From a virus: 64,000 nt of DNA. This document shows, in pieces, positions 1 through 53,483 of the stretch (position 1 is the first letter of the stretch; each line of letters starts with the position of its first letter). The position numbers and the translations under genes were made by a program. The DNA lies in IMG/VR virus record IMGVR_UViG_3300027810_000002, positions 32,001 through 96,000 of that record. One strand, written 5' to 3'. The notes under the pieces were generated by a model. The model had not been told where the DNA came from and searched no databases. It worked only from the letters and a program-made list of their open reading frames with translations.

Positions 1-443
1 CCGCATGTAACTGCGATTAAATAAGAATTATTACCATTGCTAAAGTTTGCTCTACCATCAATAGTACCACCTACTGTAGATCTCATTGTTCCAGAATATC
101 CACCAGCAGCTCCTGTTGAAGATTGTTCAACTTCATTTTTCTTATATTTCTTAATTACCTTAGAAATCTTCTCTGCTAATTGATATGCGTTTCTTCCTTG
201 AAATACATCATAAGAATCTTGTTCGATATCTCCTTGAACATTTAGATGTTCTTTGTAGTTTGGTAATTTACCGGATTTTGCAGATGCTTCCGCTTTTGCT
301 AATACTTTTTCGTATGAACTTCCCCATTTTTCAACAGCGATCTTTGCGATTCTAACTTTATCTTCTAATTTAGCTTTAATACCTTTTTTATCAAAAGATA
401 CTGCTTCATTTATAAAAGATTCAAATAATTTTACTGGTTTCAT
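1..443 (-). CDS. Putative capsid-internal protein with capsid-targeting-like N-terminus (3' end beyond window)
   Basis: Not in the ORF track. Hand translation from ATG at 443 gives MKPVKLFESFINEAVSFDKKGIKAK..., open to the window edge. Confidence 0.75.
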   Translation of the reverse strand, partial: MKPVKLFESFINEAVSFDKKGIKAKLEDKVRIAKIAVEKWGSSYEKVLAKAEASAKSGKLPNYKEHLNVQGDIEQDSYDVFQGRNAYQLAEKISKVIKKYKKNEVEQSSTGAAGGYSGTMRSTVGGTIDGRANFSNGNNSYLIAVTC

Positions 444-460
444 TGTTTTTATATTTTAAT

Positions 461-1306
461 TTATGATATGTCCATTGCGTCATCATGATCACATACAATA
501 CCTTTTTTAGCTATTTGTTTACATAAAGCATCTAGCTCATCAGTTTCGTATGTTGATGGAACTTTATCTGTTATTTTAATAGATTTTAGAAAGGCTTGTA
601 CTTCGTCTAATCCGAATTTAACCCTATGACCTACATTTGATGTTTTTGCAACATCATATAAATACGCTCCATAAAATCTACCACGCTGTTCTGTGTATGT
701 AAAATTAATTCCTTTAACTCTGAAAGGTTCGTTTTGAGCAGATATTGCCTTTGCTTCGCTTACGAATTGTTCAAATAATTGTACGTGTTTCATTGTATAT
801 TCACTTTTTTCTATTTTATTATATATCTCACTCATACTCAACATATCTTTAATACTATTGATAAATGCATCAGCAGGAACCCTATGACCTCCGTCATATA
901 CTGTATGATTAAAAGATACTTTATTGTCTTTAAAGTATTTTCTTACTTCTTTTCCGCTAACGACTGAATCGCTCTTGCCAAATCTTATTTCTATTTTAGT
1001 CTTTTTTAAATCAGAATCATCTACGACTGGATCGAATGTTCTACCAACCATTGCTGGATTAAATAACAACACTGGGATTGAAAGCTTGCTTCCAATTAAA
1101 TAAGAAACATATCCTCCCATTGAAGATCCTACAATAAGATCTGGATTTAATGATTTAATATCTTTGTATAATTTATCAAAAGTACTATCATCTCTATAGT
1201 TTATTGATGGCATATAAGCCTTGTCAAAGTTTTCATTTAAAAATATAATCTTTGGGTCTTTTTGATCAATACTAGATTCTAAACCATGTAAATACGCTAT
1301 CTTCAT
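461..1306 (-). CDS. YqiA/UPF0227-like alpha/beta hydrolase fused in frame to a tagged C-terminal domain (internal start at 793)
   Basis: YLHG oxyanion motif, GSSMGG nucleophile elbow, D (GKSD) and GGH catalytic residues. Internal MKHVQLFEQFVSE at nt 793. Confidence 0.8.
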   Translation of the reverse strand: MKIAYLHGLESSIDQKDPKIIFLNENFDKAYMPSINYRDDSTFDKLYKDIKSLNPDLIVGSSMGGYVSYLIGSKLSIPVLLFNPAMVGRTFDPVVDDSDLKKTKIEIRFGKSDSVVSGKEVRKYFKDNKVSFNHTVYDGGHRVPADAFINSIKDMLSMSEIYNKIEKSEYTMKHVQLFEQFVSEAKAISAQNEPFRVKGINFTYTEQRGRFYGAYLYDVAKTSNVGHRVKFGLDEVQAFLKSIKITDKVPSTYETDELDALCKQIAKKGIVCDHDDAMDIS

Positions 1307-1391: not shown

Positions 1392-1985
1392 TTAAGTTTT
1401 AGGTCTTCCTAATAATATCTTATCGTGCATTTTGCCTCCAAGTTTTCTAGAATACCAGCCATTTCCAGGTGATCCTTCTTTTAAACCTATCCAATCTACT
1501 TTTTTACCTAATACCTTTTCAACAGTTTCTAGATCTGAAACTAAAGGTACATTATATGAATCTAATAAGATCTCTGCGATCCTACCTGAAACTTCAATGT
1601 AAAAACCTAACTTATTAAGATCTCTTCCTCTAGCAGCGATGTATTCTCTTTTTGCTGCGGAAGTACCATCATGACCTACTCCTGAATATTTTACTCCGAA
1701 TTTGGTTTTTTTACCAAACATTATCATATCGAAATCTTCATCTCCGTGAAGGTCTAGACCTTCCCAATAATTCCAATCTGGATCTCCAAAAACATCGTCT
1801 GGCGATTTAATCTTTGCATGTCCACCTATTACAGAATATGCAGTAGATATTAACTCAAAGAATTCCCCAGCAAGCTCTGGATATTTTTTATGGTTAAACT
1901 TAGTAATTTTACCTCTCTTAGGTTTAATTAATTCACCACTAGTTTTTTCATTGATAAATTCTTCGTATAACTTTATATGTCTCAT
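1392..1985 (-). CDS. Hypothetical protein with capsid-targeting-like tag (start revised from 2006 to 1985)
   Basis: MRHIKLYEEFINE at 1985. The longer start overlaps the terminator hairpin. Confidence 0.7.
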   Translation of the reverse strand: MRHIKLYEEFINEKTSGELIKPKRGKITKFNHKKYPELAGEFFELISTAYSVIGGHAKIKSPDDVFGDPDWNYWEGLDLHGDEDFDMIMFGKKTKFGVKYSGVGHDGTSAAKREYIAARGRDLNKLGFYIEVSGRIAEILLDSYNVPLVSDLETVEKVLGKKVDWIGLKEGSPGNGWYSRKLGGKMHDKILLGRPKT

Positions 1986-1998
1986 CTTGATATATTGT

Positions 1999-2032
1999 AA
2001 AAGCATGACCTTGAAAAATCTAGGCCATGCTT
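1999..2032 (-). terminator. Rho-independent terminator
   Basis: Minus strand AAGCATGGCCT-loop-AGGTCATGCTTTT directly after the 2042-4282 stop. Confidence 0.75.
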
Positions 2033-2041
2033 AACTTATTT

Positions 2042-4282
2042 TTATCCTAATGAAGATGTTAACATCCCAACGGCTGCTCCGTAATCTCCATCAGATTTTG
2101 ATAAGATTCCGTCTACAATTTCTTGTCCTTTAGCTTCGTCAAAATCATCTCCGAATGCTTTCTTTAAAATCGTGAATGCATATTCTTGAAATTCTTCGTC
2201 AGATTTAATTTCTGCTTCGTTAACTACTGATTCTTTAATACCGAATTCTTTAGCTAACATAGTTTGTACGTCTCCAACGTTTGCACCAGATATTTCCATA
2301 CCTTCCGTGTCGTTTGCTGCGAAATCTTCAGGTTGAGCGTATACAAATTTAAGTAATAAATCTTCGACGTCGTTTATGTCTTTTTTATTTTTATTGTAAA
2401 CATCTTTTAATTCTTTCATAGTAACTGAAAGACCTAAGGCACCGTGCTCATCAGAATCAATATCTAATTGAAATAATTCTTTAGCTTCGTTAACTACTGA
2501 TTCTTTAACAAATATTGCTTCTTTATCACTATATCCAGGTTCTAATGAAAGTCCGTGTTTTTTCATTAATGATTTATATTTATCAACGTTATTAATAAAT
2601 TCAATAGCAACGTCATCCATATCGCTTGGATCTGTATTTAGAAATCCTGTATAATCATCGTGTTTTTTATCAAATTGATAGTCTTTAGAAATCATTGCTA
2701 AGAACGCATTAACTTCTGATTTACCTTCAGTAACTACTGCTTCATTGTATAAATGAACATAGTTGCTTCCTTTTTTAGAATAAACTGATTCGATTTTAAA
2801 AGATCCGTCATTTTTACCGGCGTAATGTGCTCTAAAGAATAAATTATTATCAAGCTCTCCAAAGAAATGAGATAGTTTACCGATAAAGAATTCAGCGTTT
2901 GGATAAAGCTCTAAAACTTCTTCTTTTGTTTTCGCGTTTAAAACATCTCTATTAAAATCTTTTACGAATTTAGCTTCAGTAACTACTGATTCAAATGCTG
3001 GAACTAATCCTGAACCTTGGTAAAGATCTGCCATCATCCATTTTTTAGATTTTTCATCCCATAAGTATACGAATTCTGCTCCACCGTCTCTATCTGCGTC
3101 TTTTAAATAATTATCTATATTTTTAATAGATCCGGTAGTGTTTGCAGTACCGTCATTATAAAAGTTGATTTTAGAAATATCTGTAGATAAACCGCTATTA
3201 GCTCCTTTGCTAAGTACATCGTCTACATTTTTACCGTTTTTAAAAGATTTCTTAATAATTGGTAACATGTTGTCTGGGTAAGAATCATAATGAGTATATA
3301 CTGAAGTAATATTTCCAGCCTTGTCTATTTTACCAAATTGACCTCTTGTTCCTTCGTTAAGAACCGTAGATTCATTAACTGTTACTGGGTACATTTTACC
3401 GTTAAATTCAAATTCTTCTAAATCTTCTTCAATCGCTTTAGCTCTTGCTCCTAAAAATGCATTACGCTCTTCTAGTTTAGTAGTTTCATCAGTAACTGTA
3501 ATTAGTTCAACTTCATTTGATTCGTTTAGTTTAGAATCTAAATCAATTCTAACATCTTCTCCTTCGAATGCTTGGTTAAACTGATTGACTGCAGCTTGTC
3601 CCATTCCTTCTTGTTTAATCTGCTCTAAGTAAAGTGCAGTTCCTTCAACAATTCCTTGACCTCCCCAGCCAGCAGCATTTGCTATGTCTGAATAATATTT
3701 GTCTAATATAGTTTTAATTGTTGCAGGTCCAATTTTAATAAAGTGACCTCCTAATCCGGCCATTTTAATTTCTAAAGGTTTAATGTTTCCTTTAATCATT
3801 TTAGAAACTGGTAGTGCTTCTCTATGGAAGTTTGCATCAACCATCGCTTCGTGCATTAAATACTTAATACATCCTAAAATAGATTCACTAGACATTGCTC
3901 CTAAATCTACTAATACTTTGTTAAATATTTTATTATATACAGTTACAACTTTCTTAGCGTCTCTTTTACCTTCAACTTTAATAGCTTCAGTAATTTCTTC
4001 AACTTCTTCTTCATCACTAACAACAGGCACATCATCTTCTGATTCTGAATTATCTGATTCTTCTTCAGAAATTTCTCCAAATAATTGTGAAATTATAGCT
4101 GTTTTTTGTTCTTCGTCTAATCCTTCTAGTGAAGTGATTTCCATTGAATCTAATATAGATGCAATTTTTGTGGATAGTTCTTCTCTTTTAGTGTTGTTTT
4201 CTACTGCTAACTTAATTGTTGCTTCATGTGCTAACACATCTGAGAAAGACTTAAAAGATTTGATTTTATTCATTTCTGCCAT
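2042..4282 (-). CDS. Acidic modular (poly)protein, putative capsid-internal precursor
   Basis: 746 aa. N-terminal KIKSFKSF. Repeated ESVVNEA/ESVVTEA/EAVVTEG/ESTVLNEG linkers separate unrelated modules. Confidence 0.7.
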   Translation of the reverse strand: MAEMNKIKSFKSFSDVLAHEATIKLAVENNTKREELSTKIASILDSMEITSLEGLDEEQKTAIISQLFGEISEEESDNSESEDDVPVVSDEEEVEEITEAIKVEGKRDAKKVVTVYNKIFNKVLVDLGAMSSESILGCIKYLMHEAMVDANFHREALPVSKMIKGNIKPLEIKMAGLGGHFIKIGPATIKTILDKYYSDIANAAGWGGQGIVEGTALYLEQIKQEGMGQAAVNQFNQAFEGEDVRIDLDSKLNESNEVELITVTDETTKLEERNAFLGARAKAIEEDLEEFEFNGKMYPVTVNESTVLNEGTRGQFGKIDKAGNITSVYTHYDSYPDNMLPIIKKSFKNGKNVDDVLSKGANSGLSTDISKINFYNDGTANTTGSIKNIDNYLKDADRDGGAEFVYLWDEKSKKWMMADLYQGSGLVPAFESVVTEAKFVKDFNRDVLNAKTKEEVLELYPNAEFFIGKLSHFFGELDNNLFFRAHYAGKNDGSFKIESVYSKKGSNYVHLYNEAVVTEGKSEVNAFLAMISKDYQFDKKHDDYTGFLNTDPSDMDDVAIEFINNVDKYKSLMKKHGLSLEPGYSDKEAIFVKESVVNEAKELFQLDIDSDEHGALGLSVTMKELKDVYNKNKKDINDVEDLLLKFVYAQPEDFAANDTEGMEISGANVGDVQTMLAKEFGIKESVVNEAEIKSDEEFQEYAFTILKKAFGDDFDEAKGQEIVDGILSKSDGDYGAAVGMLTSSLG
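2214..3374 (-). repeat. Dispersed ~21-25 bp linker repeats inside the polyprotein gene
   Basis: gcttcgttaactactgattctttaa is identical at 2214-2238 and 2484-2508. Variants at 2724-2744, 2973-2993 and 3351-3374. Confidence 0.85.
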
Positions 4283-4316: not shown

Positions 4317-4324
4317 TATATATC
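4317..4324 (-). promoter_or_regulatory. Putative late promoter GATATATA (representative of ~16 copies)
   Basis: Same motif sits upstream of structural and internal-protein genes; coordinates are listed in the findings. Confidence 0.65.
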
Positions 4325-23232: not shown

Positions 23233-26200
23233 CTAAAACTCTTCTCTGATGTTAGGTAATGAAAAATCAACGCTTCTTCCTCTGAATGGTGTGTACTTGC
23301 CGCTAGTTGCATAGTTAGTTAACATTGAAGAAGTTATAGAATTTATATTCTTTCCAGTTGCTCTATACTTAGAATACACTTCAATATCAAACTGAAAGTC
23401 AGTATTGTTTGAATCTATTATATCTATACCTATTATTTTAGAGTATGTTAAGTTTTGTAGAGAATTACTAATAATTCCTCCAACTCTACCTCTACCAGTA
23501 TCCCCTGTTCCACTATAATCTGTCATTCTATATTGAAATACCATATCGATGTTTAGTGCGTTAGAGCTACTTCCTTCGATTATCTTCTTTCCTCTTTTAT
23601 TGTTAGCATCAACAACTAAAGAATCTTTTCCTAGTGGAGATACATATAAAAATGATCCACATGAATGTCCTCCTAATAGATATTGATCATTTGGTTCGAA
23701 TGAATTTTTACCAGCAGTTCTAGTTCCTAGCACTACGCCACTTCCTGCACCACTGTCTGTTCCACCACTCCCTGCTATTACTTCCACTATAGTATTTGTT
23801 AATCTAAATGGAGTTTGTTTTTTACCATATAAATCACTAGCTCTTCTAGGTGCGGTTTTAGGCATTCCAACCAATCCATTACTAGCAATACCTAATACGC
23901 TTACATTTTTCGTTAATGGATGATCTTTGTGTAGGAATATTGCGTTATCATATAGAGCTGCAGTTACTGTAGAAACCGATACACTACCTAATGTACCATT
24001 AGCACTGTCGTATTCCCCGTTCCATATATAATCGTTAGTACTTTGGCTATCTGACCATGCTGTAAATTCAGCAGCTGCAAAAGATTTAGATTTATCTGTA
24101 TTATTAGTGTTAACTCCTGATATTTGATATGCTGTGTTTATACCATACTCGAATGTGTCATATCCTGAATTATCAGATACATCAATATCTCCGCCAGATC
24201 CATCAGTACTTGTTAAATACAAACTAGTATCATTAGCAATATTCATAAACCTTGAATATAAAAATTGACCTCTTAATTGTGCAGATTGTACTGGGCTATC
24301 GTTAAAATATGACTCTGTTGATTCTGTTGCATCTAAGTTTTGATAAACTACAGGTGCTAAATCGTATTTTCCTTCTGTTGTGTAATATGTATTAGAACTT
24401 ACAACAGGATCTATTGCACCAGATTGTAATCCCCACAATGTACTTGGAGTTGAGGAATATGCAGGTTGTTCAACGTCTCCTAATATTCTTGCGATTAATT
24501 CTAGATTAGTAGCCTTCGTATTAGAAAGATTTATTTTAAAGTTTTTAGTAACGATAAACCCTTTAGAGTTTGTCGATGGTACTTCATCAATATAATATCC
24601 TGCAAATAATTTAACTTTACTGTTATTAGTTACTGGTGTTACATTACCGTCTTCGTCGATTATCTGCACTAGTAACTCCCCAAGAGTTCCATCAATTTGA
24701 GCTCTTAAAGATTCTACTTCGTTTTGAAGTTCTAAAAGTTTATCATATACTGAAATAGGATTTTGCTCTCCAGTTAAGAAACCAGAAGCTAATGACGATG
24801 CATTGTGTGCAAAATACTTTTCGTTTACAGTGAATGAATCGCCAACGTGATCGTATACTCCAACAGATTCTAAATCTTCTTTTAAAGAAACTTTTAAGTT
24901 ATCTAATTCGTTTTGTGAAATTAAACCAGCTAGTGAGTCTGTTGAAAGTTCTCCTTCTGGAAATTCTACCTTAACTATGTCAGACCAATCACTTGTTACT
25001 GGGTTAGATGGATATCCTGCTTCTGATACAGATTTAACCATAATTTCAATAACTTCACCAGATCTAATAGGTAAATCAATTGAATTAAAATTAACAGCCT
25101 GTGCGTCTTCTTCGCTTTCCACTACCCATTTGTATATCCCAGCATCGTTTAATTCTCTCTTTCTAACAGGACCTTGAACTTCAATCCAGTTTGAAAAGGC
25201 TGCAGTCTTTTTAGTGCTGTTAGTAGTATCATTAAATTCAATCTGATCAATTGTTGATGTTTTGCCAGAAGTAGATACGTATCTATATCTAGTTTTAAAT
25301 TGTACAACTTCTTGAGAAAGTTCTTCACCAACTGTTTTAGGTGAAGGTATAGGCCAGAATCCTCTAACCCTAAATTTCGGAGAGGCTGTTGAAACATCTA
25401 TTGAATCTGCTGCTGCTTTTATCTCAGCAACAATTGATCCAAATAATTTAACCTCAGATGTCTTTTCGTTTACAAGTGCTCTGAACTCATTAAGTTGCTT
25501 GTCTCTTTCAACCTTAGATTTAAATTTCTTAGTGTTTAATAAAGATTTTTTAACTTTAATAGCCTCATTAATATTCTTTAAACTTTGTTCAGCTGCTAAT
25601 TTATCTGATTTAAGTTGTTTAATCTTTTTAGTAGTCGTGTTATCAGTTAAGTGTTTATTTATTTGGATAACTTTTAAATCGCCTGATGCTAATATTGGCA
25701 TGTTTGGTTTTATACCAACTGATGCTGGTGGAATGTAATCCACACTAAGAGCCTTAATAAACTGTCCAAAGTCAGATACTTCATCCTTATAATAAGATGC
25801 TAAGTTCTTGATAGTTCCGTCCTCTGTTGATATTTGTAATTCATTTGAATAAAAACCAATACCTGGCGAATATTCATTTGAAGGTATGTTTGAGATAGGA
25901 TCAATTGGTTTAATAAATACTATTTGCTTTTCATCAAATCCTATTTTAATCTCTACATCTAAATCTACGTCAATGTCTCTATATATTGATAACACGTTTG
26001 ATCCTACTTTAATAGATTCAAATCCTTCAATTAACTCTAATTCAACCTGTGATGTAGAACTATCAATTGATCTAACAATATATCTTGTTCTTAACTCTCC
26101 TGAATTAATCACTAATGAATCTGAAACTTTTAAAACTTCAGTCTCTTGAAGCGTTTTAGAAGCATCTGAGTAACTTAACTTATCAAGCGTAAATAACTTA

Positions 26201-26910
26201 ACTGTTTTAGTTTGAGTAACTCCATCAACAATCTTTGACTTCTGTTCGTTAGATATCTTAGTGACATCATAGTCTCCGAAGTATTGTACTGTTCTGATTG
26301 GCATTTCAATTACCTCAGAATCTAAATAATATTTTAAACCGTCTTCGGCAATTCTGTCTTGTAGTTCTTTATATACAATCTCGCTTTCTCCTTTATATAT
26401 TTCATCAAATGAATCTGAAGTTGCTCCGTCTTTTAAATCAAAAATAAATCTTTCAATATAAACTCTTTCCGTTTCTACTGGAATTTGACCACTAACGTCT
26501 AATCTAATAGTTAATAAAGGATTTAAAAAGTCCTCAAAGAATTCATTTAACTTTGTGTTAAATTGAGTAGGTGCTGCAAGTGATGTGATTGGTTTAGAAG
26601 GGCCTTTAAGTTTAGAAGTGTATATTTTTCTATAAGCTCCATCTTTTAATCTTACATTTGCTCCGCTACCTTCAACACCAGAAATAGATTCTAAATTTTT
26701 ATTTAGTCTTTCAATCTCTCTTTTTAAATATCCAAAGGCAGGAATCTGTACAGATTTAACTCCTTCACCAGAAGGGTCCCATAAATCTACAGTAACTGTT
26801 TCTTTATCTGTTGAGATCGCCTCATTAATACGATTGAAAGTTTCTAGAGAATTAGTGTTTAATTCTAGAAACTGTTCAAGTAATTGCGATATTGAATTTT
26901 GTGCACTCAT
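23233..26910 (-). CDS. Large putative virion structural protein
   Basis: 1225 aa with coiled coils and an FN3-like segment (VKSVSEAGYP...SDWS). Confidence 0.6.
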   Translation of the reverse strand: MSAQNSISQLLEQFLELNTNSLETFNRINEAISTDKETVTVDLWDPSGEGVKSVQIPAFGYLKREIERLNKNLESISGVEGSGANVRLKDGAYRKIYTSKLKGPSKPITSLAAPTQFNTKLNEFFEDFLNPLLTIRLDVSGQIPVETERVYIERFIFDLKDGATSDSFDEIYKGESEIVYKELQDRIAEDGLKYYLDSEVIEMPIRTVQYFGDYDVTKISNEQKSKIVDGVTQTKTVKLFTLDKLSYSDASKTLQETEVLKVSDSLVINSGELRTRYIVRSIDSSTSQVELELIEGFESIKVGSNVLSIYRDIDVDLDVEIKIGFDEKQIVFIKPIDPISNIPSNEYSPGIGFYSNELQISTEDGTIKNLASYYKDEVSDFGQFIKALSVDYIPPASVGIKPNMPILASGDLKVIQINKHLTDNTTTKKIKQLKSDKLAAEQSLKNINEAIKVKKSLLNTKKFKSKVERDKQLNEFRALVNEKTSEVKLFGSIVAEIKAAADSIDVSTASPKFRVRGFWPIPSPKTVGEELSQEVVQFKTRYRYVSTSGKTSTIDQIEFNDTTNSTKKTAAFSNWIEVQGPVRKRELNDAGIYKWVVESEEDAQAVNFNSIDLPIRSGEVIEIMVKSVSEAGYPSNPVTSDWSDIVKVEFPEGELSTDSLAGLISQNELDNLKVSLKEDLESVGVYDHVGDSFTVNEKYFAHNASSLASGFLTGEQNPISVYDKLLELQNEVESLRAQIDGTLGELLVQIIDEDGNVTPVTNNSKVKLFAGYYIDEVPSTNSKGFIVTKNFKINLSNTKATNLELIARILGDVEQPAYSSTPSTLWGLQSGAIDPVVSSNTYYTTEGKYDLAPVVYQNLDATESTESYFNDSPVQSAQLRGQFLYSRFMNIANDTSLYLTSTDGSGGDIDVSDNSGYDTFEYGINTAYQISGVNTNNTDKSKSFAAAEFTAWSDSQSTNDYIWNGEYDSANGTLGSVSVSTVTAALYDNAIFLHKDHPLTKNVSVLGIASNGLVGMPKTAPRRASDLYGKKQTPFRLTNTIVEVIAGSGGTDSGAGSGVVLGTRTAGKNSFEPNDQYLLGGHSCGSFLYVSPLGKDSLVVDANNKRGKKIIEGSSSNALNIDMVFQYRMTDYSGTGDTGRGRVGGIISNSLQNLTYSKIIGIDIIDSNNTDFQFDIEVYSKYRATGKNINSITSSMLTNYATSGKYTPFRGRSVDFSLPNIREEF

Positions 26911-26912
26911 AG

Positions 26913-28883
26913 TTATCTTATAATTTCAAGTTCGAATGTCTTGTTTATTTCGTCAACGCAAACTAATTCGATATATGGCTTATTGCTTAATAGATCTGTT
27001 TCGTTGATCGTATTTGTTAATTTCCAGTTACCTTTTTTACCTACGAATATATTAATTTTATTGTTATCCATGTGATCAATTGAAGTTTTAAAAGTTAATT
27101 TAATAACTTGTCCTACTTTAACTGGAATAACACTATCATCTAAGTATATATCTAAATCTCTTACAAAGTCCTCGTCTTCGGTATATACTCTAATTAAATT
27201 ATCATATCTTTTTATTCTTGTCCAAATACCTGTGATATCCGCTTCTTGTGGATTCCATGCAAGATCTTTGTCTATTTTAACCTCAACTCCTTCGCTTACT
27301 AAATCATAGATATGCGCTTGATTAAGACTATATCCGTTGTTTACGTTTTGTATCTTTATTTTCTGAGGATTACTCTTATCTATTAAGATTCCGTTTCCTG
27401 CAGATATGACATCTGTGTTATATTGAATAGATGTTGGTATCTTCCCGTTAATAACTTGATTTAATCTATCGTTCGTCTTAGATATAATATCTAAAATAGA
27501 ACCAGCGTTTTTAAAGTTAAGTGAAGCGTCTTCTATAGATTGCTCTAATGCTATAACTTTAGCTGAAATAGAACTTTGATCAACCGAAGTCATCATTAAG
27601 TTTTCTAATTCATCAAGCCTGTCAGACATGATATTAAATCTATGACTTGCTTCTGCTAATATTTTAGCAGCGTTCTCTAAAGAACTTGTAGTATCAAAGA
27701 ATAAATCCATTGAGAATGTAGTAAAGTCATTGATGTTTGTTTCAATACCTACATTATCTAAAGAAGAATTAAATTTAACATTTAATTTTAGTGCAAATGC
27801 ATTACCATTTAAACCTGTTACTTCGTTTGGTTTGTATTTACTTAATTCCGGTAAGTACCATCCAGTACTATTCGGATCATTTTTAAAGTTATCTAATAAT
27901 ATAACTCCGTATAGGTTTGTTGTTCTGTTACCAGGGTTAGATTTAGAATATACATCATAGTATACTAAGATCGCATTAAATCTAAAGTCTCCACCTCTTT
28001 TTGAATAATCTTGAACTGTGTTAAGCTTTGCATCACCTTCAATAGCAGCATATGTTATTGGGCTCCATTCAATACCGTAATTATAGGTTGAATTTGGATC
28101 AATATCTATCGTACCGTTATTTGAATCTGCTAAAGACCCTAAGTCTATGTTAGCATCTGGATGTGCTTGTCCGTCTCTTCCGTTAATAAAAGAACCTGGT
28201 TCATATGACGTAGCAGTCGTGTTATAGCTTGAGTTTTTAAATAAAACAGTTGGAGTATATCCAGCCGAAGTTGGCACATTAATAAAGACTTCATTATAAG
28301 TATCACCATTATAATTTTTGTCATTAGTAACATCTACGTTTCCTAAGTATCTAACTACTTGACTATATTCTGATCCACTTTGTATTGAATCATCCTCTTC
28401 TACTACTCTATTATATCCTGACGCAGCTTCCTGTGAATTAGCTGGTCTTGTTCTAAATGCTCCAATTTCGTTTAACCACTTAAAAAAGATCTTTTCAGCA
28501 TCAGAAGAATATATTGAATTATCAAAATCGTCGTCTGTTAGTATAAAGTTTTCTAAGTTAAGGGCGTAGTTTTGGAACGTGTTGGCAAAATGACGGTTTG
28601 CATTATCGTCCGGGCTGTCTCCGTCGTAATTTGGTGCAATACCAGGTACTCCGTTAACAGGGGCCACTGGGCCACCTTCGAATAAATTATTAAATTGTAT
28701 GTAATTGTTTGTTGCTCCACCAGAAGGCTCGTCAACAACTGGTAAATCTAATAACGCGAATTTTGAATACTCAAAAACAATATCTGGATTATAATATGCA
28801 CGCGTTAAATCTCTAGCGGCGCTAGAGAAAGCATACATGGTACCTCCCTGTTCTTGAGGAATTCTAATTAATGGTGTAGCCAT
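26913..28883 (-). CDS. Putative baseplate/virion structural protein
   Basis: 656 aa, in the baseplate operon. Confidence 0.55.
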   Translation of the reverse strand: MATPLIRIPQEQGGTMYAFSSAARDLTRAYYNPDIVFEYSKFALLDLPVVDEPSGGATNNYIQFNNLFEGGPVAPVNGVPGIAPNYDGDSPDDNANRHFANTFQNYALNLENFILTDDDFDNSIYSSDAEKIFFKWLNEIGAFRTRPANSQEAASGYNRVVEEDDSIQSGSEYSQVVRYLGNVDVTNDKNYNGDTYNEVFINVPTSAGYTPTVLFKNSSYNTTATSYEPGSFINGRDGQAHPDANIDLGSLADSNNGTIDIDPNSTYNYGIEWSPITYAAIEGDAKLNTVQDYSKRGGDFRFNAILVYYDVYSKSNPGNRTTNLYGVILLDNFKNDPNSTGWYLPELSKYKPNEVTGLNGNAFALKLNVKFNSSLDNVGIETNINDFTTFSMDLFFDTTSSLENAAKILAEASHRFNIMSDRLDELENLMMTSVDQSSISAKVIALEQSIEDASLNFKNAGSILDIISKTNDRLNQVINGKIPTSIQYNTDVISAGNGILIDKSNPQKIKIQNVNNGYSLNQAHIYDLVSEGVEVKIDKDLAWNPQEADITGIWTRIKRYDNLIRVYTEDEDFVRDLDIYLDDSVIPVKVGQVIKLTFKTSIDHMDNNKINIFVGKKGNWKLTNTINETDLLSNKPYIELVCVDEINKTFELEIIR

Positions 28884-32240: not shown

Positions 32241-32512
32241 TATCTAAAGTTTTTATAATCTTTTTTAGTTGTAAACGATTTAAATCCTTTTAAGTATGTT
32301 ACCGAACCAACAAGGTCAGCTAATACTTTCTGGATTAAAACTACAAAATCATTCATTCTATTATTTCTAACAATATAAGGAGATATAGATTTCCTTAGCA
32401 TGTTATCTTCATATGCGTTACCCTTGTTCTTACGATTATCCATAACACTCTCTCGAATGGTGTAGTTCCTCTTCTGCCTGCTCTTAAATAGATTCTGTAT
32501 TAATGATGCCAT
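32240..32512 (-). CDS. Hypothetical basic protein
   Basis: 90 aa, TAATG overlaps on both sides. Confidence 0.6.
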   Translation of the reverse strand: MASLIQNLFKSRQKRNYTIRESVMDNRKNKGNAYEDNMLRKSISPYIVRNNRMNDFVVLIQKVLADLVGSVTYLKGFKSFTTKKDYKNFR

Positions 32513-34332
32513 TATAGTGCTCTTCTATTTTTAGCTTGTATTTTAGAGAATATTGTATGGGGTACCGCAGGTTCATCGAAATAAATAGATAACGCAGCTT
32601 GTTCTCCAAGTTTAGCATCATCAGGTATTACAACACCATCGCGATCTAACCAACCTCCTCTGAATAAGGCAACTTCTTCTTTTGCTAATAATATATCACC
32701 GAAAGAATCTAAATTAATTACATCCTCTGGCAATGCAGCGTTAGGTTCAAAACTTATTTTTCTTTCAGTAACTGTTCTTTTAAAGAAAACATATTTTTGT
32801 TTTCCATTACCAATATCTTCTAGTATTGGGGTAGAAGGAGTAACTGTAACTTTGTTTAGGATGTAATATCCTAATCTCCTTGCATCTTCCTCTACTTTAG
32901 ATATAAATCTTACATTTACTGAATCAATCCCCTCAACACTCTCTAAAAGGGCGATGATGTCTGATTTTGGTAAACGATCTCTTCTTGTTATATTGATTAA
33001 ATAATCCGATATTCTAGAACGTATTTCAGAATAAAGTGCAGGCTTGTTATATCCTTCAAAATATCTAACTTTAACATCCATGCTAAAATATTGAACATCA
33101 GGTTCTACGATCTTAACTTCGGTCGTAACCATTTGTTGTCCGCTGTTTTCAAGTAACTCTAGGAATCCATTCTTTTCGTCGCTTGAGAAAAAGAACTCGT
33201 CTAATGCTAAACTGAAATAATCTTTATTTTTGCTTAATTTTTTAGCAGTATCAGGTAACATAAATAAGTATATTACATTGTCATCATCAATATAACCATC
33301 ATCTGTCGTGTTATATGCATCTAAGTAAGAAAACATTCCATATCTTGAAAGGAAATGTTCAAATGATTCTGGATTTGCCAACACGAACGAATGCGATTGC
33401 AGTGGCGCGATTAATTTAGTTAATTCTACCGATTCAGGATCTGCTCCCATTTTAGGTGCAGCTGTAAAAGAAGACTCTAACAATTCGTTTAAATCATATG
33501 TTTCTCCTAATGAATCAAATCCTTCAGTTACGAATTTAAAAGTAAGATCTTTAGATCCTGATAAATTACCCTTTGTTCCGTCTGTGTTTAAATATTCTAC
33601 TTCAATAGAAGATCCTGCTACTGGTATTTTACCAAAAGAACCATTTCCAAAATAAATATCTAATCCTCCATTAATTCCGGTTTTAACAAGATATCCTTGA
33701 GTCCCAACCTTCATATCATATAAAGAATCATATTTAGACCATAGTGTGCTATTAACACTTACCCTAACCGAATGATGATCTGTTATTTTCTTAGTAACTA
33801 TATTATAAGACTGTAGTTTTTCACCTGTTCCTGTTACGGTCTGCGTTTCAGTCTTTCCTTGTACTACTGGGATACGAATATATGCAGCATTACTTTTTTC
33901 AATTCTAAATTGATCGTTGTTTGTTTTTAAAATATACTCTAAACCATTTGCTGTACATTTTATGATAGCATTTTGCGGTATATTAAGAGCGTCTCCTGCA
34001 ATATCAGTAGATGCTGAAGTGTTTAACCTAATTTTAATTTCGCCGTATGAGCTTGCTCCTCTGAATGCATCGTGACCGGCTAGTCTTGCGAGTCCGTATA
34101 TCGATTCAGGGTTTTGAGCAGTTAATATATTCTGTTCAACTGTTGCGTCTTCAACATAGAAGAAAATTAGTTTAGTAATTTCAGATAATACATCCAAGAT
34201 CTGTGAGAATGGAGAAGCAGTCGTGAATAGTTCACTAGTCCTTCCATATAAACGAGACATATATGACCTCGTATCCGTGATCATATCGTTTGCTCTTAAT
34301 CTAGTTGCATTTAAAAATTTAAATTCAGCCAT
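32512..34332 (-). CDS. Baseplate wedge protein (T4 gp6-like)
   Basis: ILTAQ..SIYGLARLAGH, IYFGNGSFGKIP, VEYLNTDGTKGN, GADPESVE. Confidence 0.85.
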   Translation of the reverse strand: MAEFKFLNATRLRANDMITDTRSYMSRLYGRTSELFTTASPFSQILDVLSEITKLIFFYVEDATVEQNILTAQNPESIYGLARLAGHDAFRGASSYGEIKIRLNTSASTDIAGDALNIPQNAIIKCTANGLEYILKTNNDQFRIEKSNAAYIRIPVVQGKTETQTVTGTGEKLQSYNIVTKKITDHHSVRVSVNSTLWSKYDSLYDMKVGTQGYLVKTGINGGLDIYFGNGSFGKIPVAGSSIEVEYLNTDGTKGNLSGSKDLTFKFVTEGFDSLGETYDLNELLESSFTAAPKMGADPESVELTKLIAPLQSHSFVLANPESFEHFLSRYGMFSYLDAYNTTDDGYIDDDNVIYLFMLPDTAKKLSKNKDYFSLALDEFFFSSDEKNGFLELLENSGQQMVTTEVKIVEPDVQYFSMDVKVRYFEGYNKPALYSEIRSRISDYLINITRRDRLPKSDIIALLESVEGIDSVNVRFISKVEEDARRLGYYILNKVTVTPSTPILEDIGNGKQKYVFFKRTVTERKISFEPNAALPEDVINLDSFGDILLAKEEVALFRGGWLDRDGVVIPDDAKLGEQAALSIYFDEPAVPHTIFSKIQAKNRRAL

Positions 34333-39206: not shown

Positions 39207-41060
39207 TTAAAATGAGAGCGGCATGAATCCTACCATAGGGATTGGACCACCTGGTGTTGCTATTCCACCTAAATATAAAAACTTTAATTTTAATAAGTGC
39301 TTTGCACATGCTCCTGCAAATGCTGTTGCAACTAAAGTGGCAGCAACCGGAGTTGCTGGAGGAACTTCAAAAAACTTACCATTGTTCCATGCTCTTCTTA
39401 AATCGTTTGCAAGTGATGTCTTACTACCATATGATATTGGTGCAAACACGCCAAGTAATGGAGGAGTTATATTACATGGTGGTATTGGAGGCCCACTTGT
39501 AAACGGCTGAACTGCTGCTGATTGCCAGTATTTAATAATAGCACCTGCCATTATCTCATACGGATCCTCGCCGTCTTCCTCTTGATCCTGTGAGTTTACC
39601 TCTTCCATGTAGTTGGCCCACTTTCTTTGAGTTTCCCACCATCTTTCTTGCTCTTTTTTATAGAGTGAATCCTTTTCACGTCTTCGCCATATTCGACCTA
39701 TGTTGTTAGTGTACATTAAAATCTTTCCATCAATGCTCGGAACGTATGTGAAGGCTTTAATTAAACCTTGTTTTATTTCTGCTGGTATTTCTTCTGGCCT
39801 TTGCTTATGCTCTTCTTGAAAGACATATTGATTAATCTGATAATCCGAAGTAGACAGGGGAGGTACGATAAGTTTACTTGTTAAAGAATATTTATTACCT
39901 CCATCTTTTATTACTTTATTTCTTTCTTCTTTTTCGGCACTTCTCCATTCTTTTTCTAAAAATTTTATTTTATCGTATATCTTTCTAGAAAGAGCCCGGT
40001 AGTTATACGGTATCTCTGTTCCATACCTTAGAAGCTCTACCCATAGCTTATATCCTTTTGAATTATCATTCCTTTTTAGAATTCTATTAACTAGAACATT
40101 TATTCTTTCTTCTTCTGTAAGATCTGGTATAGTATTTCTAACAGGCTTAGTAATATTTTCTGGATATCCTGCAGCGTATCCTTGTAACTTTTCATCAATA
40201 CCACTTAGCTTCTCTAATACTCCACCATCGCTTATAGTAATTGATTTAGTCTTATTTATTATTTTAATTAAAGATTTACCGGACATATCTAGTATTTCTT
40301 TAAATGTATATGTATATTTACCAGGAACTGCAGGTATGTTTATTACGGTAAAGGCAGTATTATTGCCAGCTCCGCTTCCGGAACCGCTACCAGAGCCCGA
40401 TGATGTCGAGCCAGAACCTACTGAACCTACTGTTAGCAAAGGCTGTTCAATTTCGTTTATTGTATATCTTATTTTAAAAGACTGTTCTGGATTAAATTTT
40501 TTAATTATAAATCGAACAACGTAATTATGAGATGGTGCGTTTATATCTGAACTTGCTTTAGTAACTACACTAAAATCTATATCTCCGTCATTCGTGGTGT
40601 CATTTGGATCCTCCTCTGGATATGGAACCGGGCATGTTGATTCATATAGGGGATAGTAATTGAACTTCTGAAGAGTGTCTGTGTTCTCTGAGGTCCATTT
40701 TTCTATCTCACACTGTGCGTCAAATGTTAAATCGGCTTCTGGGAGTATTTCAGTAATAGACTGATACTGCGATAAAGTTTTTCTATCCTCAAGAGAGGTT
40801 TCATAATCTTCAAAAAGCTTTTTAAATGCCTTGTCAAAGCCTTCCGTCAACACAGTCTTTACGCCAGCATTACTATGTGTATTTCCGAATGGGGTTTGTG
40901 CTGTTGATACTGCGGCAACATATTCATCTGCTAGAAACGAGGCAAAGTCGCCAATGCCCGGAGTATGTGGAGGTACCTGAGGTAATCCCATACTCTCTGC
41001 ACTTCTTGCTATTAGTTTTGCAGATACGTTATTAATAAATAAAGGCCATTTTGCCGGCAT
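39207..41060 (-). CDS. Hypothetical baseplate-associated protein with Pro-rich C-terminus
   Basis: 617 aa, next to the gp5-like gene, preceded by GATATATA at 41081-41088. Confidence 0.55.
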   Translation of the reverse strand: MPAKWPLFINNVSAKLIARSAESMGLPQVPPHTPGIGDFASFLADEYVAAVSTAQTPFGNTHSNAGVKTVLTEGFDKAFKKLFEDYETSLEDRKTLSQYQSITEILPEADLTFDAQCEIEKWTSENTDTLQKFNYYPLYESTCPVPYPEEDPNDTTNDGDIDFSVVTKASSDINAPSHNYVVRFIIKKFNPEQSFKIRYTINEIEQPLLTVGSVGSGSTSSGSGSGSGSGAGNNTAFTVINIPAVPGKYTYTFKEILDMSGKSLIKIINKTKSITISDGGVLEKLSGIDEKLQGYAAGYPENITKPVRNTIPDLTEEERINVLVNRILKRNDNSKGYKLWVELLRYGTEIPYNYRALSRKIYDKIKFLEKEWRSAEKEERNKVIKDGGNKYSLTSKLIVPPLSTSDYQINQYVFQEEHKQRPEEIPAEIKQGLIKAFTYVPSIDGKILMYTNNIGRIWRRREKDSLYKKEQERWWETQRKWANYMEEVNSQDQEEDGEDPYEIMAGAIIKYWQSAAVQPFTSGPPIPPCNITPPLLGVFAPISYGSKTSLANDLRRAWNNGKFFEVPPATPVAATLVATAFAGACAKHLLKLKFLYLGGIATPGGPIPMVGFMPLSF

Positions 41061-45031: not shown

Positions 45032-46780
45032 TTATCCGTTTGAATGTTTTCTTAATTCTTTGTCCTTTGGTGATTTTTGAGTTTTACCATACGCATTGAC
45101 ATCAACCGTTGCGTTAATATCTATTTCATCTGCAGGTTGTATATAGAATCTACCCCTACCTGTGTTAAACATACTTTCAATTTCTGCCTTATCTCTTGGT
45201 CTTGCTGGTTTTAATGTGATTTCAACAACCATTCTCTCTGGAAAATCTTGTAATCCCATAGGTCCTTCAAAATTAATTGAAGTATCTGTACATGCTAGAT
45301 TACCAATAACCACGATTGGGTTTAGTGGGTTACCGATTGTAACATGCCACTGTCCGGTAGGATCACCAGATAATAAAGCAGCAACTGCTTGACCACCTTG
45401 TGGAGAGTTAAACATCTTCATCATACTACCCGACAGTAAATTGTTAAGAGTATCACCAACCCCTTTCATTCCAAAATCTTTTATAGATTTCGTTATATCA
45501 CCCATAGAAGATCCAGTATTGTTACCTGTAAAATCTGAAACTACAGATTTCATAAACCCTCCGTAATCTCCATTTTTTAATAAATCAACATTACCTAATG
45601 GCCTTGCAACAGATCCATCTCCAATATATCTAACGTCTCCACCCCAGAAAGGTGCGTTATTATATGTTAAAGCTAGCATGTTAGCCAATTGATCTAACAT
45701 TAATATTTTTGGATTTGCTCCTCCTAAATCTCTAAGTTCGTATTCAAATTTTAGTTTAAATTCCTGATCAAACTTTAAACCCTGTTCCCTAACTAATGTT
45801 TTCTTAATAACATTAAGCGGACCAAATACGTGATTTGGATATGTATTACTAAATGAATCATAACCGGCACCACCATTATCTAATCTTTCCTGCTGTGCCT
45901 GTGTTCTACCTGATGCAGCGTTACTTGCAGCTTTAAGTACTTTATTATTGTTAATTATACCACCAACTTTACCTGAACTTGCATTATTCTGCGACTGTAC
46001 CGTTTGAACCTCTGCCTCTGCTTCTTTCCAATTAAAACCATGCGAAAATTTCATGATTTCCGCCATAGTATTTCCAGTTGCTTCACTTAACCATGTAACT
46101 GCTCTTGCAATATCAGGCTCTTGTGAGTTTGCTCCTGTTAATCCTAAAGGACTAATGATATCATCAGGCGCAGGGCCTGTAAATCTTCGTAGAGTTATCA
46201 TCATGTTGTTTGGAATTCTACCAAAGTATTTCGCCATAGCAAAATCTGAATATTGATATTTATATCCGTTACTACCACCAGCATCTGTCATTTCGATAAT
46301 TCTAGATGCAGTCGGGTTAATTAAAGTTCTTGGATCTATTTTGTTAAAAAACTTACTTTTATTTGAATCACCCTTACCTCCTTCTCCGAACAACGGAGTA
46401 CCTCTAAAATTAATTAATGAGTATTTATTGAAAAGAGAATATGGTCTTTTACCTAAAGTTATATTGGCGTTACCTTCTCCATCTTTATGTTTATACGAAT
46501 CTACGTCTTGATTGTAAAAAACATCAACATTTCTAGTAGCTCTAGTTTCTTGTGTAATTGCATTAACACTTGCTGCGATGTTTAAACTGGAATCTTCTTC
46601 AATAGAAGATTTTAAAGAGTTTTCATTATTCTTAATTCTTAATTGAGCGTTAACCCCATCAGGGTTTTCAATATCGAATAAGTCGTTAAGTTTATCTTTG
46701 AGTGTACTAACCCCTAGTTCGCTCACTTGCGTGATTGCGTCACTTGAGTTATTTATACCTCCACTAATGTCTAAGCTCAT
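45032..46780 (-). CDS. Putative baseplate/tail-tube junction protein
   Basis: 582 aa, first gene of the hub operon; C-terminal tube-fold-like IGNLACTD...FP....VEITLKP. Confidence 0.5.
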   Translation of the reverse strand: MSLDISGGINNSSDAITQVSELGVSTLKDKLNDLFDIENPDGVNAQLRIKNNENSLKSSIEEDSSLNIAASVNAITQETRATRNVDVFYNQDVDSYKHKDGEGNANITLGKRPYSLFNKYSLINFRGTPLFGEGGKGDSNKSKFFNKIDPRTLINPTASRIIEMTDAGGSNGYKYQYSDFAMAKYFGRIPNNMMITLRRFTGPAPDDIISPLGLTGANSQEPDIARAVTWLSEATGNTMAEIMKFSHGFNWKEAEAEVQTVQSQNNASSGKVGGIINNNKVLKAASNAASGRTQAQQERLDNGGAGYDSFSNTYPNHVFGPLNVIKKTLVREQGLKFDQEFKLKFEYELRDLGGANPKILMLDQLANMLALTYNNAPFWGGDVRYIGDGSVARPLGNVDLLKNGDYGGFMKSVVSDFTGNNTGSSMGDITKSIKDFGMKGVGDTLNNLLSGSMMKMFNSPQGGQAVAALLSGDPTGQWHVTIGNPLNPIVVIGNLACTDTSINFEGPMGLQDFPERMVVEITLKPARPRDKAEIESMFNTGRGRFYIQPADEIDINATVDVNAYGKTQKSPKDKELRKHSNG

Positions 46781-53018: not shown

Positions 53019-53483
53019 TTAATCTTCTTTTGATTTAAATGGTAGCTTTTTATCGTGACCTCCGTCTCTAACTTCTTTAGCAACGTCTTTGTCAGCACCT
53101 CCCCAAGTTCCTTTTCCTTTTTCTAAGAATGCATTTATTCTAGCGTATCCCCATCCTTCTTGCGTCATACCTGGATGGTGTCCACCATTCCAAGCGTCCA
53201 TTCCACGTCTCATTATGATTCTCAATAAGGGTACAGGTACTCCACTTTCTTTTGATTTGTTCTTGATTCCGGTTTCTACAGCCTTACCTTTAAGTGGTCC
53301 TCTATCTCCTTTAGCTTTTTCTGCTTCATTAACAGATTCTCCTAGAACTGGAGTATTATCATAACCGCATTCGTGACATATATAAGGTTCTTTTCCACCC
53401 TCATCTAATCTCCAAGACCAATCGCAGTTATTGCACGATACTGAATTTGCTGAAAATTCTTCAAATAATTTAACGTGTTTCAT
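53019..53483 (-). CDS. Tagged two-module protein: Zn ribbon, ESVNEA linker, conserved helical phage domain
   Basis: MKHVKLFEEF; CNNC...CHEC; GESVNEAE; RRGMDAW..GHHPG...WGYARINAF. Confidence 0.7.
   Translation of the reverse strand: MKHVKLFEEFSANSVSCNNCDWSWRLDEGGKEPYICHECGYDNTPVLGESVNEAEKAKGDRGPLKGKAVETGIKNKSKESGVPVPLLRIIMRRGMDAWNGGHHPGMTQEGWGYARINAFLEKGKGTWGGADKDVAKEVRDGGHDKKLPFKSKED

Follow-up and report, generated by a model that had tools for sequence, protein, structure and literature searches.

A modular polyprotein gene, probably encoding a precursor of head-internal proteins, in a marine T4-type jumbo myovirus

The window analysed here is a 64,000-nucleotide stretch of viral DNA (positions 32,001 to 96,000 of IMG/VR record IMGVR_UViG_3300027810_000002). 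Near its left end, a single gene on the minus strand encodes a protein of ~80 kDa when intact, and the list of open reading frames contains no other long frame at this locus (2042-4282(-)). The protein consists of modules joined in frame by short recurring junction peptides. The modules and junctions are as follows, an arrow marking the boundary between the last junction residue (P1) and the first residue of the next module (P1').

2042..4282 (-): polyprotein gene, 746 amino acids plus stop; order N-A-Z-B-C-D-E-F
3986..4282 (-): module N, residues 1-99; leader-like KIKSFKSF start, helical hairpin at 13-68, acidic disordered tail
3983..4003 (-): junction N/A, EEITE↓A, residues 94-100; a looser sixth junction, overlooked in the preliminary description
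3479..3985 (-): module A, residues 100-268; mostly helical, with two short strands
3353..3478 (-): mini-cassette Z, residues 269-310; helix and beta-hairpin, NAF..ARAKAI..EFEFNGKxYPV
3350..3373 (-): junction Z/B, ESTVLNE↓G; pLDDT <50 at residues 302-310
2975..3352 (-): module B, residues 311-436; alpha/beta domain, phrog_1987, invariant GTR at its start
2972..2992 (-): junction B/C, ESVVTE↓A
2726..2974 (-): module C, residues 437-519; small alpha+beta domain, pLDDT 79-95
2723..2743 (-): junction C/D, EAVVTE↓G
2486..2725 (-): module D, residues 520-599; a rare cassette
2483..2503 (-): junction D/E, ESVVNE↓A; a 25-bp DNA repeat has its first copy here, at 2484-2508
2216..2485 (-): module E, residues 600-689; a cassette absent from natural variants
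2213..2233 (-): junction E/F, ESVVNE↓A; the second copy of that 25-bp repeat is at 2214-2238
2045..2215 (-): module F, residues 690-746; three-helix bundle, pLDDT 85-94

This chain joins eight unrelated units. The five linkers of the preliminary description were all recovered where it had placed them, with spacings of 126, 83, 80, and 90 codons (378, 249, 240, and 270 bp). Its division of the protein into linker-bounded cassettes also stood, except that the first module, which it had treated as a single unit of 211 aa, is composed of module A (100-268) and the ~40-aa cassette Z (269-310). Its view that the modules are mutually unrelated agrees with profile-profile comparisons, 28/28 of which gave <10% probability and aligned linker tails only. 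Additionally, AlphaFold2 (AF2) predicted modules that fold independently rather than a single continuous fold: N, A, Z, B, C, and F fold at pLDDT 80-95 (85-93 across residues 106-240, in module A) with a pTM of 0.33-0.37, and linkers fall in low-confidence stretches (pLDDT <50 at residues 70-103, 302-310, and 432-436). Modules D and E, with only 3-4 homologues each, are poorly modelled.

At 50% identity, relatives of the protein fall into no fewer than 739 clusters, composed entirely of marine metagenome proteins without annotation, and the 113 closest clusters display 55 architectures. Module N heads most relatives, and module F is the most widespread module and is usually C-terminal. A rough count, made by single-linkage of linker-delimited segments and with multi-module pieces merged, puts module diversity at no fewer than ~90 clusters. 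The whole polyprotein gave no match in a tblastn search against cultured phages; distant matches in cultured phages were found for module B only, and include Streptococcus siphophages with ClpP-type head proteases, so the modules are not bound to T4-type heads.

The junctions share the consensus E-S-V-V-(N/T)-E↓(A/G), of which the constrained core is a hydrophobic P3, Glu at P1, and a small P1'. The polyprotein has six [VIL][NT]E[AG]-type sites where 0.27 are expected, and 0/2000 shuffles reached six. Among ~150 representatives, [VILMFT]-x-E precedes the module start in 39/45 cases for A, 60/60 for B, 27/28 for C, 3/3 for D, 4/4 for E, and 99/105 for F; for B, the narrower [VIL]-x-E also holds in 60/60. 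The Glu/hydrophobic rule is kept even when the remainder of the linker has diverged (LIEE↓G, VLNE↓G, and LITE↓G are examples), and some internal junctions keep F-x-x-V-V-x-E↓ while others keep just [VIL]-x-E↓. A crude test, superseded by the module-start count, found that 25% of blast HSP ends were within 10 aa of linkers, versus 9%. Four-residue sites are absent from the interior of modules B, C, and F (0 versus 11, 6, and 20 expected), a pattern that is at most suggestive, as these sequences are non-independent and module A is enriched in such sites. With so short a motif as [VIL]-x-E, and with a conserved internal IVEG in module A, specificity would have to depend on accessibility.

By position, the junction matches the end of a leader, MKxIKLFExF[IV]xE↓A, found at the N-terminus of about 15 other gene products and of stand-alone copies of polyprotein modules. 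Leaders resembling the T4 capsid-targeting sequence (CTS), and a second gene with an internal junction, were located in the window as follows.

402..443 (-): N-terminal CTS-like leader of the next-but-two gene, MKPVKLFESFINE↓A
1944-1985, 51771-51812, and 53442-53483: similar leaders
52666-52707: a looser leader
53019-53483: open reading frame with, in order, a leader, a zinc-ribbon-like part, a GESVNE↓A junction (53322..53342, (-)), and DUF5824

The GESVNE↓A linker of this last gene, reported in the preliminary description, is real and separates the Cys4 zinc-ribbon-like part from the DUF5824 domain. Stand-alone copies of module B follow a leader in P0138 (...FINEKPINE↓GTR) and P0113. Similarly, the stand-alone module A of P0075 follows the leader ...FLNE↓AISV, which ends at the same residue as the N/A junction. 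A free-standing homologue of module B in cyanophage S-T4 begins M-GTRS, which is the N-terminus that a cut at E↓GTR would make. The CTS of T4 is MKTYQEFIAE (PMC8442874); its residues 4 and 7 act in targeting and 8 and 10 in processing, and gp21 cleaves after L/I-X-E (PMC9026906). F7, F10, V11, and E13 of the leader are spaced 0, +3, +4, and +6, as are Y4, F7, I8, and E10 of T4. At the level of sequence, leader and junction are equivalent; the polyprotein N-terminus itself is without a canonical cleavable leader. The junction core fits the specificity of prohead proteases of the gp21 family (Peptidase S77), L/I-x-E↓, and the junctions would have arisen from the end at which an N-terminal leader of the capsid-targeting type is cut.

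The presence of this leader on neighbouring genes, together with ORF 461-1306, which retains an internal Met and leader, could suggest that errors in assembly or sequencing have merged adjacent small genes and that the motif merely represents the leaders of separate genes. However, there are no stop or Met codons at the junctions, and the identical or nearly identical uninterrupted frame is found on many independent contigs (ENA, JGI, Tara) and in at least nine marine studies, with the same open architecture in hundreds of relatives. The chance that the gene is such an artefact is negligible.

Profile searches with PF03420 and PF07068 gave no match in the contig, but the contig terminates within the portal gene, so these negative head-gene searches are not evidence of absence. 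Its left end is collinear with the relative G001 and breaks off within a portal gene that shares 86% identity with that of G001, which carries Portal_T4 (5.7e-68), Gp23 (3.4e-43), and a Peptidase_S77-scaffold fusion (3.5e-10). As judged from collinear relatives, the gene for the phage's own S77 protease probably lies past the contig end. In the S77-scaffold fusions (45 distinct variants), R[VM]NE↓[SAE] occurs right after the protease domain, and a second site, [VILA][NK]E↓[SAEG], lies ~27 residues before the C-terminus, with Ala at the hydrophobic position in one variant. The agreement of motif, together with the conserved VNE↓S at the own domain boundary of the relatives' protease, is the basis for reading the junctions as putative gp21-family sites. 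The GINE↓A site in the Gp23 major capsid protein (MCP) of G001 was considered as support and dropped, as it reads IND in most relatives; PIIE↓S at residue 19 of the MCP is invariant, but the surrounding N-terminus is conserved throughout, so that this site lends weak support. Cleavage at the junctions and packaging of the products are well-supported predictions, drawn from the T4-type L/I-x-E motif, the equivalence to CTS-like leaders, the gp21-family protease of collinear relatives, and the disordered linkers.

The protease-scaffold fusions also raise the question of whether the polyprotein is itself a scaffold or core component, like T4 gp22, gp67, and gp68, with the cut pieces serving as disposable aids that are expelled from the head. 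The Z cassette is common to both proteins (it occurs in 15/61 of the fusions, behind VEE↓G), an acidic disordered stretch and a helical hairpin lie in the N-terminal part of the polyprotein, and T4 core proteins are cleaved to several fragments (PMC9026906). In contrast, the modules fold compactly and contain polar residues that do not vary (in module B, the invariant positions are T2, R3, H21, E93, D99, and W105), small free-standing homologues occur in phages whose heads are of other types (as observed for module B), and 55 architectures among close relatives are unexpected for an essential size-determining scaffold. A scaffold role is therefore considered quite improbable.

The genomic setting includes one further feature upstream of the gene.

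4317..4323 (-): ATATATA box, 41 nt upstream of the polyprotein ATG

This heptamer has 68 copies on the coding strand versus 27 on the other, lies within 80 nt upstream of 35 genes, and also precedes baseplate, tail, fibre, and other leader-bearing genes; it is a candidate late promoter element. The polyprotein gene is located among replication genes, adjoining a UvsW-type helicase and gp32. The ip genes of T4 are likewise placed among replication genes, and this neighbourhood is by itself no sign of a virion role.

At the DNA level, cassettes are exchanged at the linkers, and the resulting mosaicism has its breakpoints at the junctions. The 25-bp identity noted in the preliminary description is exact (2214-2238 = 2484-2508, by repeat search), and its proposal that linkers act as recombination points is borne out by population contigs in which a cassette has been deleted precisely across this repeat. 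For instance, position 2213 is joined to 2484 through 25 shared nt in contigs from run X8 (DNA) and from run X13 (an RNA library, with 0 mismatches), which belong to two independent studies; the join removes one 270-bp cassette (module E) exactly. Module E is missing from L001 too. Module D matches its counterpart in L012 at 96.9% of nucleotides, against 70-78% for the other modules of that relative. Module presence and absence were expected to break at the linkers, and they do so in protein architectures, DNA homology blocks, and population contigs alike: the homology blocks stop within a few codons of junctions, and most of the contig divergence points listed lie in junctions (B/C, 2965-2996; C/D, with loose ends at 2722, 2743, and 2744). 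The junction DNA (~20-25 nt) is conserved at synonymous positions, and the first Val codon of the junctions is GTA in 16/17 against a background of 0.36. The earlier comparison with an integron-like array lacking an integrase is apt as an analogy, but membership among integrons is not indicated, as no tyrosine recombinase was found in the contig: PF00589 had no match in its 175 kb (66% complete) and matched all 14 control genomes. The mechanism is likely to be short-homology recombination, nearer to the PeSL shuffling of T4-type phages than to integrons.

Such DNA-level conservation would also be compatible with an uncleaved multidomain chain of the 'polyvalent' type, packaged or not, whose junctions are flexible spacers conserved as mutually homogenising DNA substrates. 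Synonymous conservation of junction DNA and cassette deletions are demonstrably there, and uncleaved polyvalent proteins are documented, N4 vRNAP being an example (PMC5512222). However, the P1 Glu, hydrophobic P3, and small P1' outlast the divergence of linker and DNA (60/60 for module B), a persistence that DNA-only constraint does not predict and which counts against an uncleaved chain. Additionally, the junction coincides with the leader end on stand-alone copies and with the natural N-terminus of free homologues, and the same tripeptide stands at the protease-scaffold boundary. We regard an uncleaved chain as unlikely, if less so than a scaffold.

No function or fold was recognised for the modules in searches of Pfam, PHROGs, PDB profiles, the ESM Atlas, Foldseek, and VIA-align. 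Pfam detected no family in the polyprotein at E up to 0.1 and, in 70 relatives (49,000 residues), stray single matches only, with no MPTase or other peptidase. The best VIA-align matches (Z 5-6) were generic helical hairpins and bundles, and a resemblance of module C to Ugi-2 (VIA-align Z 4.5) was set aside as too weak to use. The designation of the modules as effectors in the preliminary description is unsupported, as none has a recognisable function.

Several known systems offer partial parallels. T4 IPI, IPII, IPIII, and Alt, processed by gp21, have the same two leader aromatics and [VI]-x-E↓ end at the same spacing; the predicted Glu-Ala or Glu-Gly cut and the diverse, fast-evolving cargo behind a constant tag are also alike, the cargo genes lie away from the head module, and the lineage, as judged from collinear relatives, would have T4-type head genes (portal, Gp23, S77 protease). 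In contrast to the T4 internal proteins (IPs), many cargos here share one frame, with a tag remnant reused as internal junction, the leader is three residues longer, and the cargo is acidic or neutral and unrelated to T4 IPs. Polyvalent proteins (Iyer et al. 2017, PMC5512222) likewise combine many unrelated domains with extreme mosaicism (the polyprotein falls within their two to fifteen domains) and share the idea of co-delivery with DNA and release as separate units. However, their signature domains (MPTase, DarA-N, DdrB-ParB, PBECR, lysozyme, and others) and embedded peptidase were not found here; release would instead fall to a prohead protease encoded by another gene, acting at a recurring junction, and the domains are much smaller (40-170 aa). 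In PeSL shuffling (Arbiol et al. 2010, PMC2839356) and at the IP loci that vary among T-even phages (Repoila et al. 1994, cited in PMC2839356), as here, short conserved DNA flanks variable units and contains the breakpoints, and recombination between such elements removes, adds, and swaps cassettes in T4-type genomes. PeSLs, however, are intergenic, combining an early promoter with a stem-loop terminator, and move whole genes, whereas the junctions are ~20-25 nt of in-frame coding sequence with no start or stop. In the giant myoviruses phiKZ, 201phi2-1, and SPN3US, many proteins inside the head are processed after Glu by a protease related to gp21, often at several sites each and likewise at a three-residue motif (PMC5694885, PMC9026906). 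Their motif is a different one, S/A/G-x-E, and those cuts strip propeptides from paralogous proteins rather than separating unrelated cassettes, and linker-mediated shuffling is undescribed there.

Overall, we consider it probable that the product of this gene is a polyprotein precursor from which a marine T4-type jumbo myovirus derives head-internal proteins, cut by the prohead protease and shuffled at its linkers. The precursor would be made late, would enter the prohead core by its N-terminal region and/or the scaffold-shared Z cassette, and would be cut by the prohead protease into free small proteins. These would stay with the DNA and could be ejected into the host; both the ejection and the module roles are what we infer. 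The junction DNA meanwhile acts as an in-frame site of short homology, at which cassettes undergo deletion, insertion, reordering, and swapping between phages with the frame intact. A broader possibility, put forward tentatively, is that each junction has a dual use, as a protease site in the peptide and as a homology patch in the DNA, and that together with the leader genes this allows marine T4-type and jumbo phages an integrase-free 'plug-and-play' reshuffling, over population time scales, of the ready-made proteins injected along with the DNA, plausibly for counter-defence or host takeover.

The internal proteins of T4 are the textbook example of virion-delivered counter-defence proteins, few in number and each with its own gene. 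If the precursor reading is true, a large unannotated ocean family packs many small proteins via one precursor, and shows how an arsenal may evolve fast without breaking the reading frame. It would also provide a rule for finding mature virion proteins in uncultured T4-type phages, namely [VIL]-x-E↓[AGS] at disordered junctions, and a model from nature for loading several cargos into engineered T4-type capsids; the family's small autonomous domains, which number in the dozens, would be candidate injected factors.

The polyprotein encoded by the ORF at 2042-4282 (-), the sole long frame of its region, is modular. All five ESVV(N/T)E-type linkers that the preliminary description had placed in its 746 aa were recovered with matching positions and spacings, including an exact 25-bp repeat common to both ESVVNE|A linkers (2214-2238 and 2484-2508; the bar marks the predicted cut). 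An additional sixth junction, EEITE|A (residues 95-100), is looser in form. Overall, six [VIL][NT]E[AG] sites were observed compared to 0.27 expected, and none of 2000 shuffles reached six. The pieces of the polyprotein are:

Residues 1-99, module N
Residues 100-268, module A
Residues 269-310, module Z
Residues 311-436, module B
Residues 437-519, module C
Residues 520-599, module D
Residues 600-689, module E
Residues 690-746, module F

The modules had been described as mutually unrelated, and in profile-profile comparisons all 28 of the 28 pairs among the eight pieces fell below 10% probability, with only the linker tails alignable. A GESVNE|A junction claimed for the ORF at 53019-53483 was also present. 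For residues 1-436, AlphaFold2 (pTM 0.37) predicted folded units (a helical hairpin at 13-68, A at 106-240, Z at 266-300, and B at 311-431; block-mean pLDDT mostly 80-95) with low-confidence stretches between them; pLDDT is below 50 at residues 70-103, 241-265, 302-310, and 432-436, and the junctions are among these stretches. Within residues 437-746, modules C and F were confidently folded and D and E were not, because homologues of the latter number only 3-4. Comparison of the modules with PDB folds gave no match that stood out, a Pfam search of the polyprotein gave no match, and module B alone matched a PHROG, itself of unknown function.

An exhaustive HMMER search (E up to 0.001) returned 739 representative clusters, and among the best 150 of these, lengths range from 118 to 1036 aa and the query's modules occupy widely varying positions. 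Architectures are highly varied, with N mostly first and F mostly last; orders seen in relatives include A-B, B-A, and E-A, plus many with foreign modules, and the 113 closest 90%-identity clusters hold 55 architectures. Some alleles share modules that are 95-100% identical, yet have one cassette more or fewer. The gene is present in at least nine marine studies. Family proteins are labelled hypothetical or unnamed in every source, with few exceptions (two spurious 'transcription elongation factor Elf1' names and raw gene-call descriptors), and a Pfam search of 70 large members (49,000 residues) found essentially no domain. A 98%-complete 186-kb T4-like marine phage (G003) with a canonical 219-aa gp21 homologue also encodes a polyprotein (L017 4546-7023 (+), 825 aa; junctions ESINE, ESVNE, and NVNE; Z cassette), and therefore the phenomenon is not confined to the jumbo lineage. 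A second polyprotein of 1008 aa, with at least three ESV[VI]NE|A junctions, is encoded at 24171-27197 (-) of the whole contig, 4.8 to 7.8 kb ahead of the window. Its cassettes, e.g. AKFDKKKL..., are also found in relatives of the 746-aa protein, and thus a single cassette pool serves both genes.

Cassettes are exchanged at the junctions. Module presence or absence in relatives had been predicted to break at the linkers, and this is where DNA comparison with five relatives delimited the homology blocks, which begin or end within a few codons of junctions. The following arrangements were observed:

L001, without modules D and E
L011, without D and with two other cassettes inserted between B and C
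L002, module order C-D-E-A

In the relative L012, module D and both of its junctions have 96.9% DNA identity compared to 70-78% for A, B, and F, and a single cassette was therefore recently exchanged. Population contigs from four public marine runs were also compared with the polyprotein gene. Contigs from a sediment metagenome and a metatranscriptome library (the latter with 0 mismatches on either side) join 2213 to 2484, skipping exactly 270 nt, with 25 nt common to both sides. Repeat collapse was rejected as an explanation for this joint, since the 25-nt repeat is shorter than the assembly words, which are apparently 31 letters long. Most of the listed contig divergence points lie within junctions (2216, 2233, 2507, 2722, 2743/2744, 2965-2996, and 3355). 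Module content, DNA blocks, and the 270-nt deletion across the 25-bp repeat all agree with the earlier proposal that the linkers are recombination points. The gene adjoins that of a UvsW-type helicase, with gp32 nearby, and no tyrosine recombinase was found in this contig; the likely agent of exchange is therefore T4-type homologous recombination.

The codons of the junctions are almost invariant (GAA TCA GTA GTT AAC/ACT GAA GCT): GTA encodes the first Val in 16/17 cases, compared to 0.36 in background use, and ACT encodes Thr in 9/9. The main rival explanation is that the polyprotein stays uncleaved, as a protein of the polyvalent type, and that its linkers are of consequence solely as DNA. 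Judged from the sequences of family representatives, the junction is a protein-level feature. Module starts are preceded by Glu, with a hydrophobic residue two positions upstream of it (A 39/45, B 60/60, C 27/28, D 3/3, E 4/4, and F 99/105), and the first residue after this Glu is Ala, Gly, or Ser. Peptides upstream of module B are diverse (LIEE, VLNE, LITE, IIEE) with a constant three-residue core. T4 gp21 cuts C-terminal to Glu, after L/I-X-E, as seen earliest at a Glu-Ala bond (PMC9026906), and this reported specificity equals the three-residue core of the polyprotein junctions. Predicted cleavage by a prohead protease, with packaging as internal proteins, is the best-supported mechanism and is considered fairly probable. 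The system merges three known ideas, namely T4 capsid-targeting sequence (CTS) and gp21 processing, polyvalent proteins, and motif-mediated modular shuffling, a combination not found described in the searchable literature.

Searches of this 175-kb contig for the S77 protease and the Gp23 capsid protein gave no match, and the contig ends inside the portal gene. Its positions 1-949 (-) code for the first 316 residues of a T4-type portal, 86% identical to that of a relative's contig (G001), with which the seven preceding genes are collinear. Behind the portal gene of G001 (Portal_T4, 5.7e-68) come first one 265-aa ORF, then a fusion of Peptidase_S77 and scaffold (3.5e-10) and a capsid protein of the Gp23 family (3.4e-43); in the present phage, the protease-scaffold and capsid genes are expected immediately past the contig end at the portal. 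In 45 distinct variants of the fusion, R[VM]NE|[SAE] lies directly behind the protease domain and [VILA][NK]E|[SAEG] approximately 27 residues from the C-terminus (Ala at the hydrophobic position in one), both where self-processing of such fusions would be expected. The Z mini-cassette follows VEE|G in 15/61 protease-scaffold proteins. The product of the ORF at 49790-50731 (-), acidic and 313 aa long, has an N-terminus resembling the leader (MAKLKSFEQYV), a tandem pair of Z mini-cassettes (EE|GNAFGDAVRKAKEAG..FEFDG..), and a module known from relatives' polyproteins, and may be a scaffold-like head-core protein. In the G001 head module, two unannotated genes (L036 9778-10575 and 14320-15696) flank the protease and MCP genes; their motifs (leader-like and VNE|S or INE|S; KVNE|S then MKHLQTFKNY; MKTFEQWYKAFTE|S) make their products candidates for further processed head proteins. 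A distant module B homologue in the temperate siphophage Javan123 of Streptococcus (L118 2998-3342) has the large terminase gene (plus a phd-doc pair) on one side and the portal gene on the other, hinting that in unrelated phages it may act in association with the head or as a moron.

An ATATATA box lies at 4317-4323, 41 nt upstream of the polyprotein start codon, and also before genes for baseplate, tail, and fibre and before others with the leader. The coding strand has 68 copies of ATATATA and the other strand 27, and 35 genes, mostly structural, have it 11-72 nt upstream (e.g. 32512-34332, 39207-41060, and 45032-46780). The box is a candidate late promoter element, and its position before the polyprotein gene is compatible with late expression.

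A leader of the type MKxIKLFExF[IV]xE|A starts approximately 15 genes of the contig, whose coding strand has 16 leader-type or junction motif sites. In the T4 CTS, MKTYQEFIAE (PMC8442874), residues 4 and 7 are required for targeting and 8 and 10 for processing (PMC9026906), and these key residues match leader F7, F10, V11, and E13 in relative spacing. On other contigs, the leader is borne by stand-alone modules A and B (P0075, P0138, and P0113), whose first residue behind it is identical to that in the polyprotein. Cyanophage S-T4 has a free-standing module B homologue starting Met-GTRS, and thus its natural N-terminus is the product expected from an E|GTR cut. In the ORF at 461-1306 (-), an esterase-like domain (UPF0227, Pfam 1.7e-08) and a second module are fused in one reading frame, and between the two is a complete internal Met and leader, MKHVQLFEQFVSE|A (752-793). 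The 68 nt around this leader have 71% identity to 402-469, around the start of the neighbouring gene, and the DNA upstream is similar to a neighbouring intergenic region. The arrangement looks as if two leader-tagged genes had recently fused, or else like an internal start site, and suggests a route by which fusions arise. The listed ORF at 1392-2006 (-) begins MLLQYIK, and its true start is probably the Met of the leader MRHIKLYEEFINE at residue 8 (1985). Three other genes start with this leader or a relaxed variant:

50781-51812 (-), ATP-grasp enzyme (Dala_Dala_lig_C, 8.5e-08)
52168-52707 (-), protein with a Cys-rich C-terminus like the end of the L017 polyprotein
53019-53483 (-), protein with a zinc-ribbon-like part and DUF5824

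Should the leader serve as a capsid tag, packaging would extend to enzymes.
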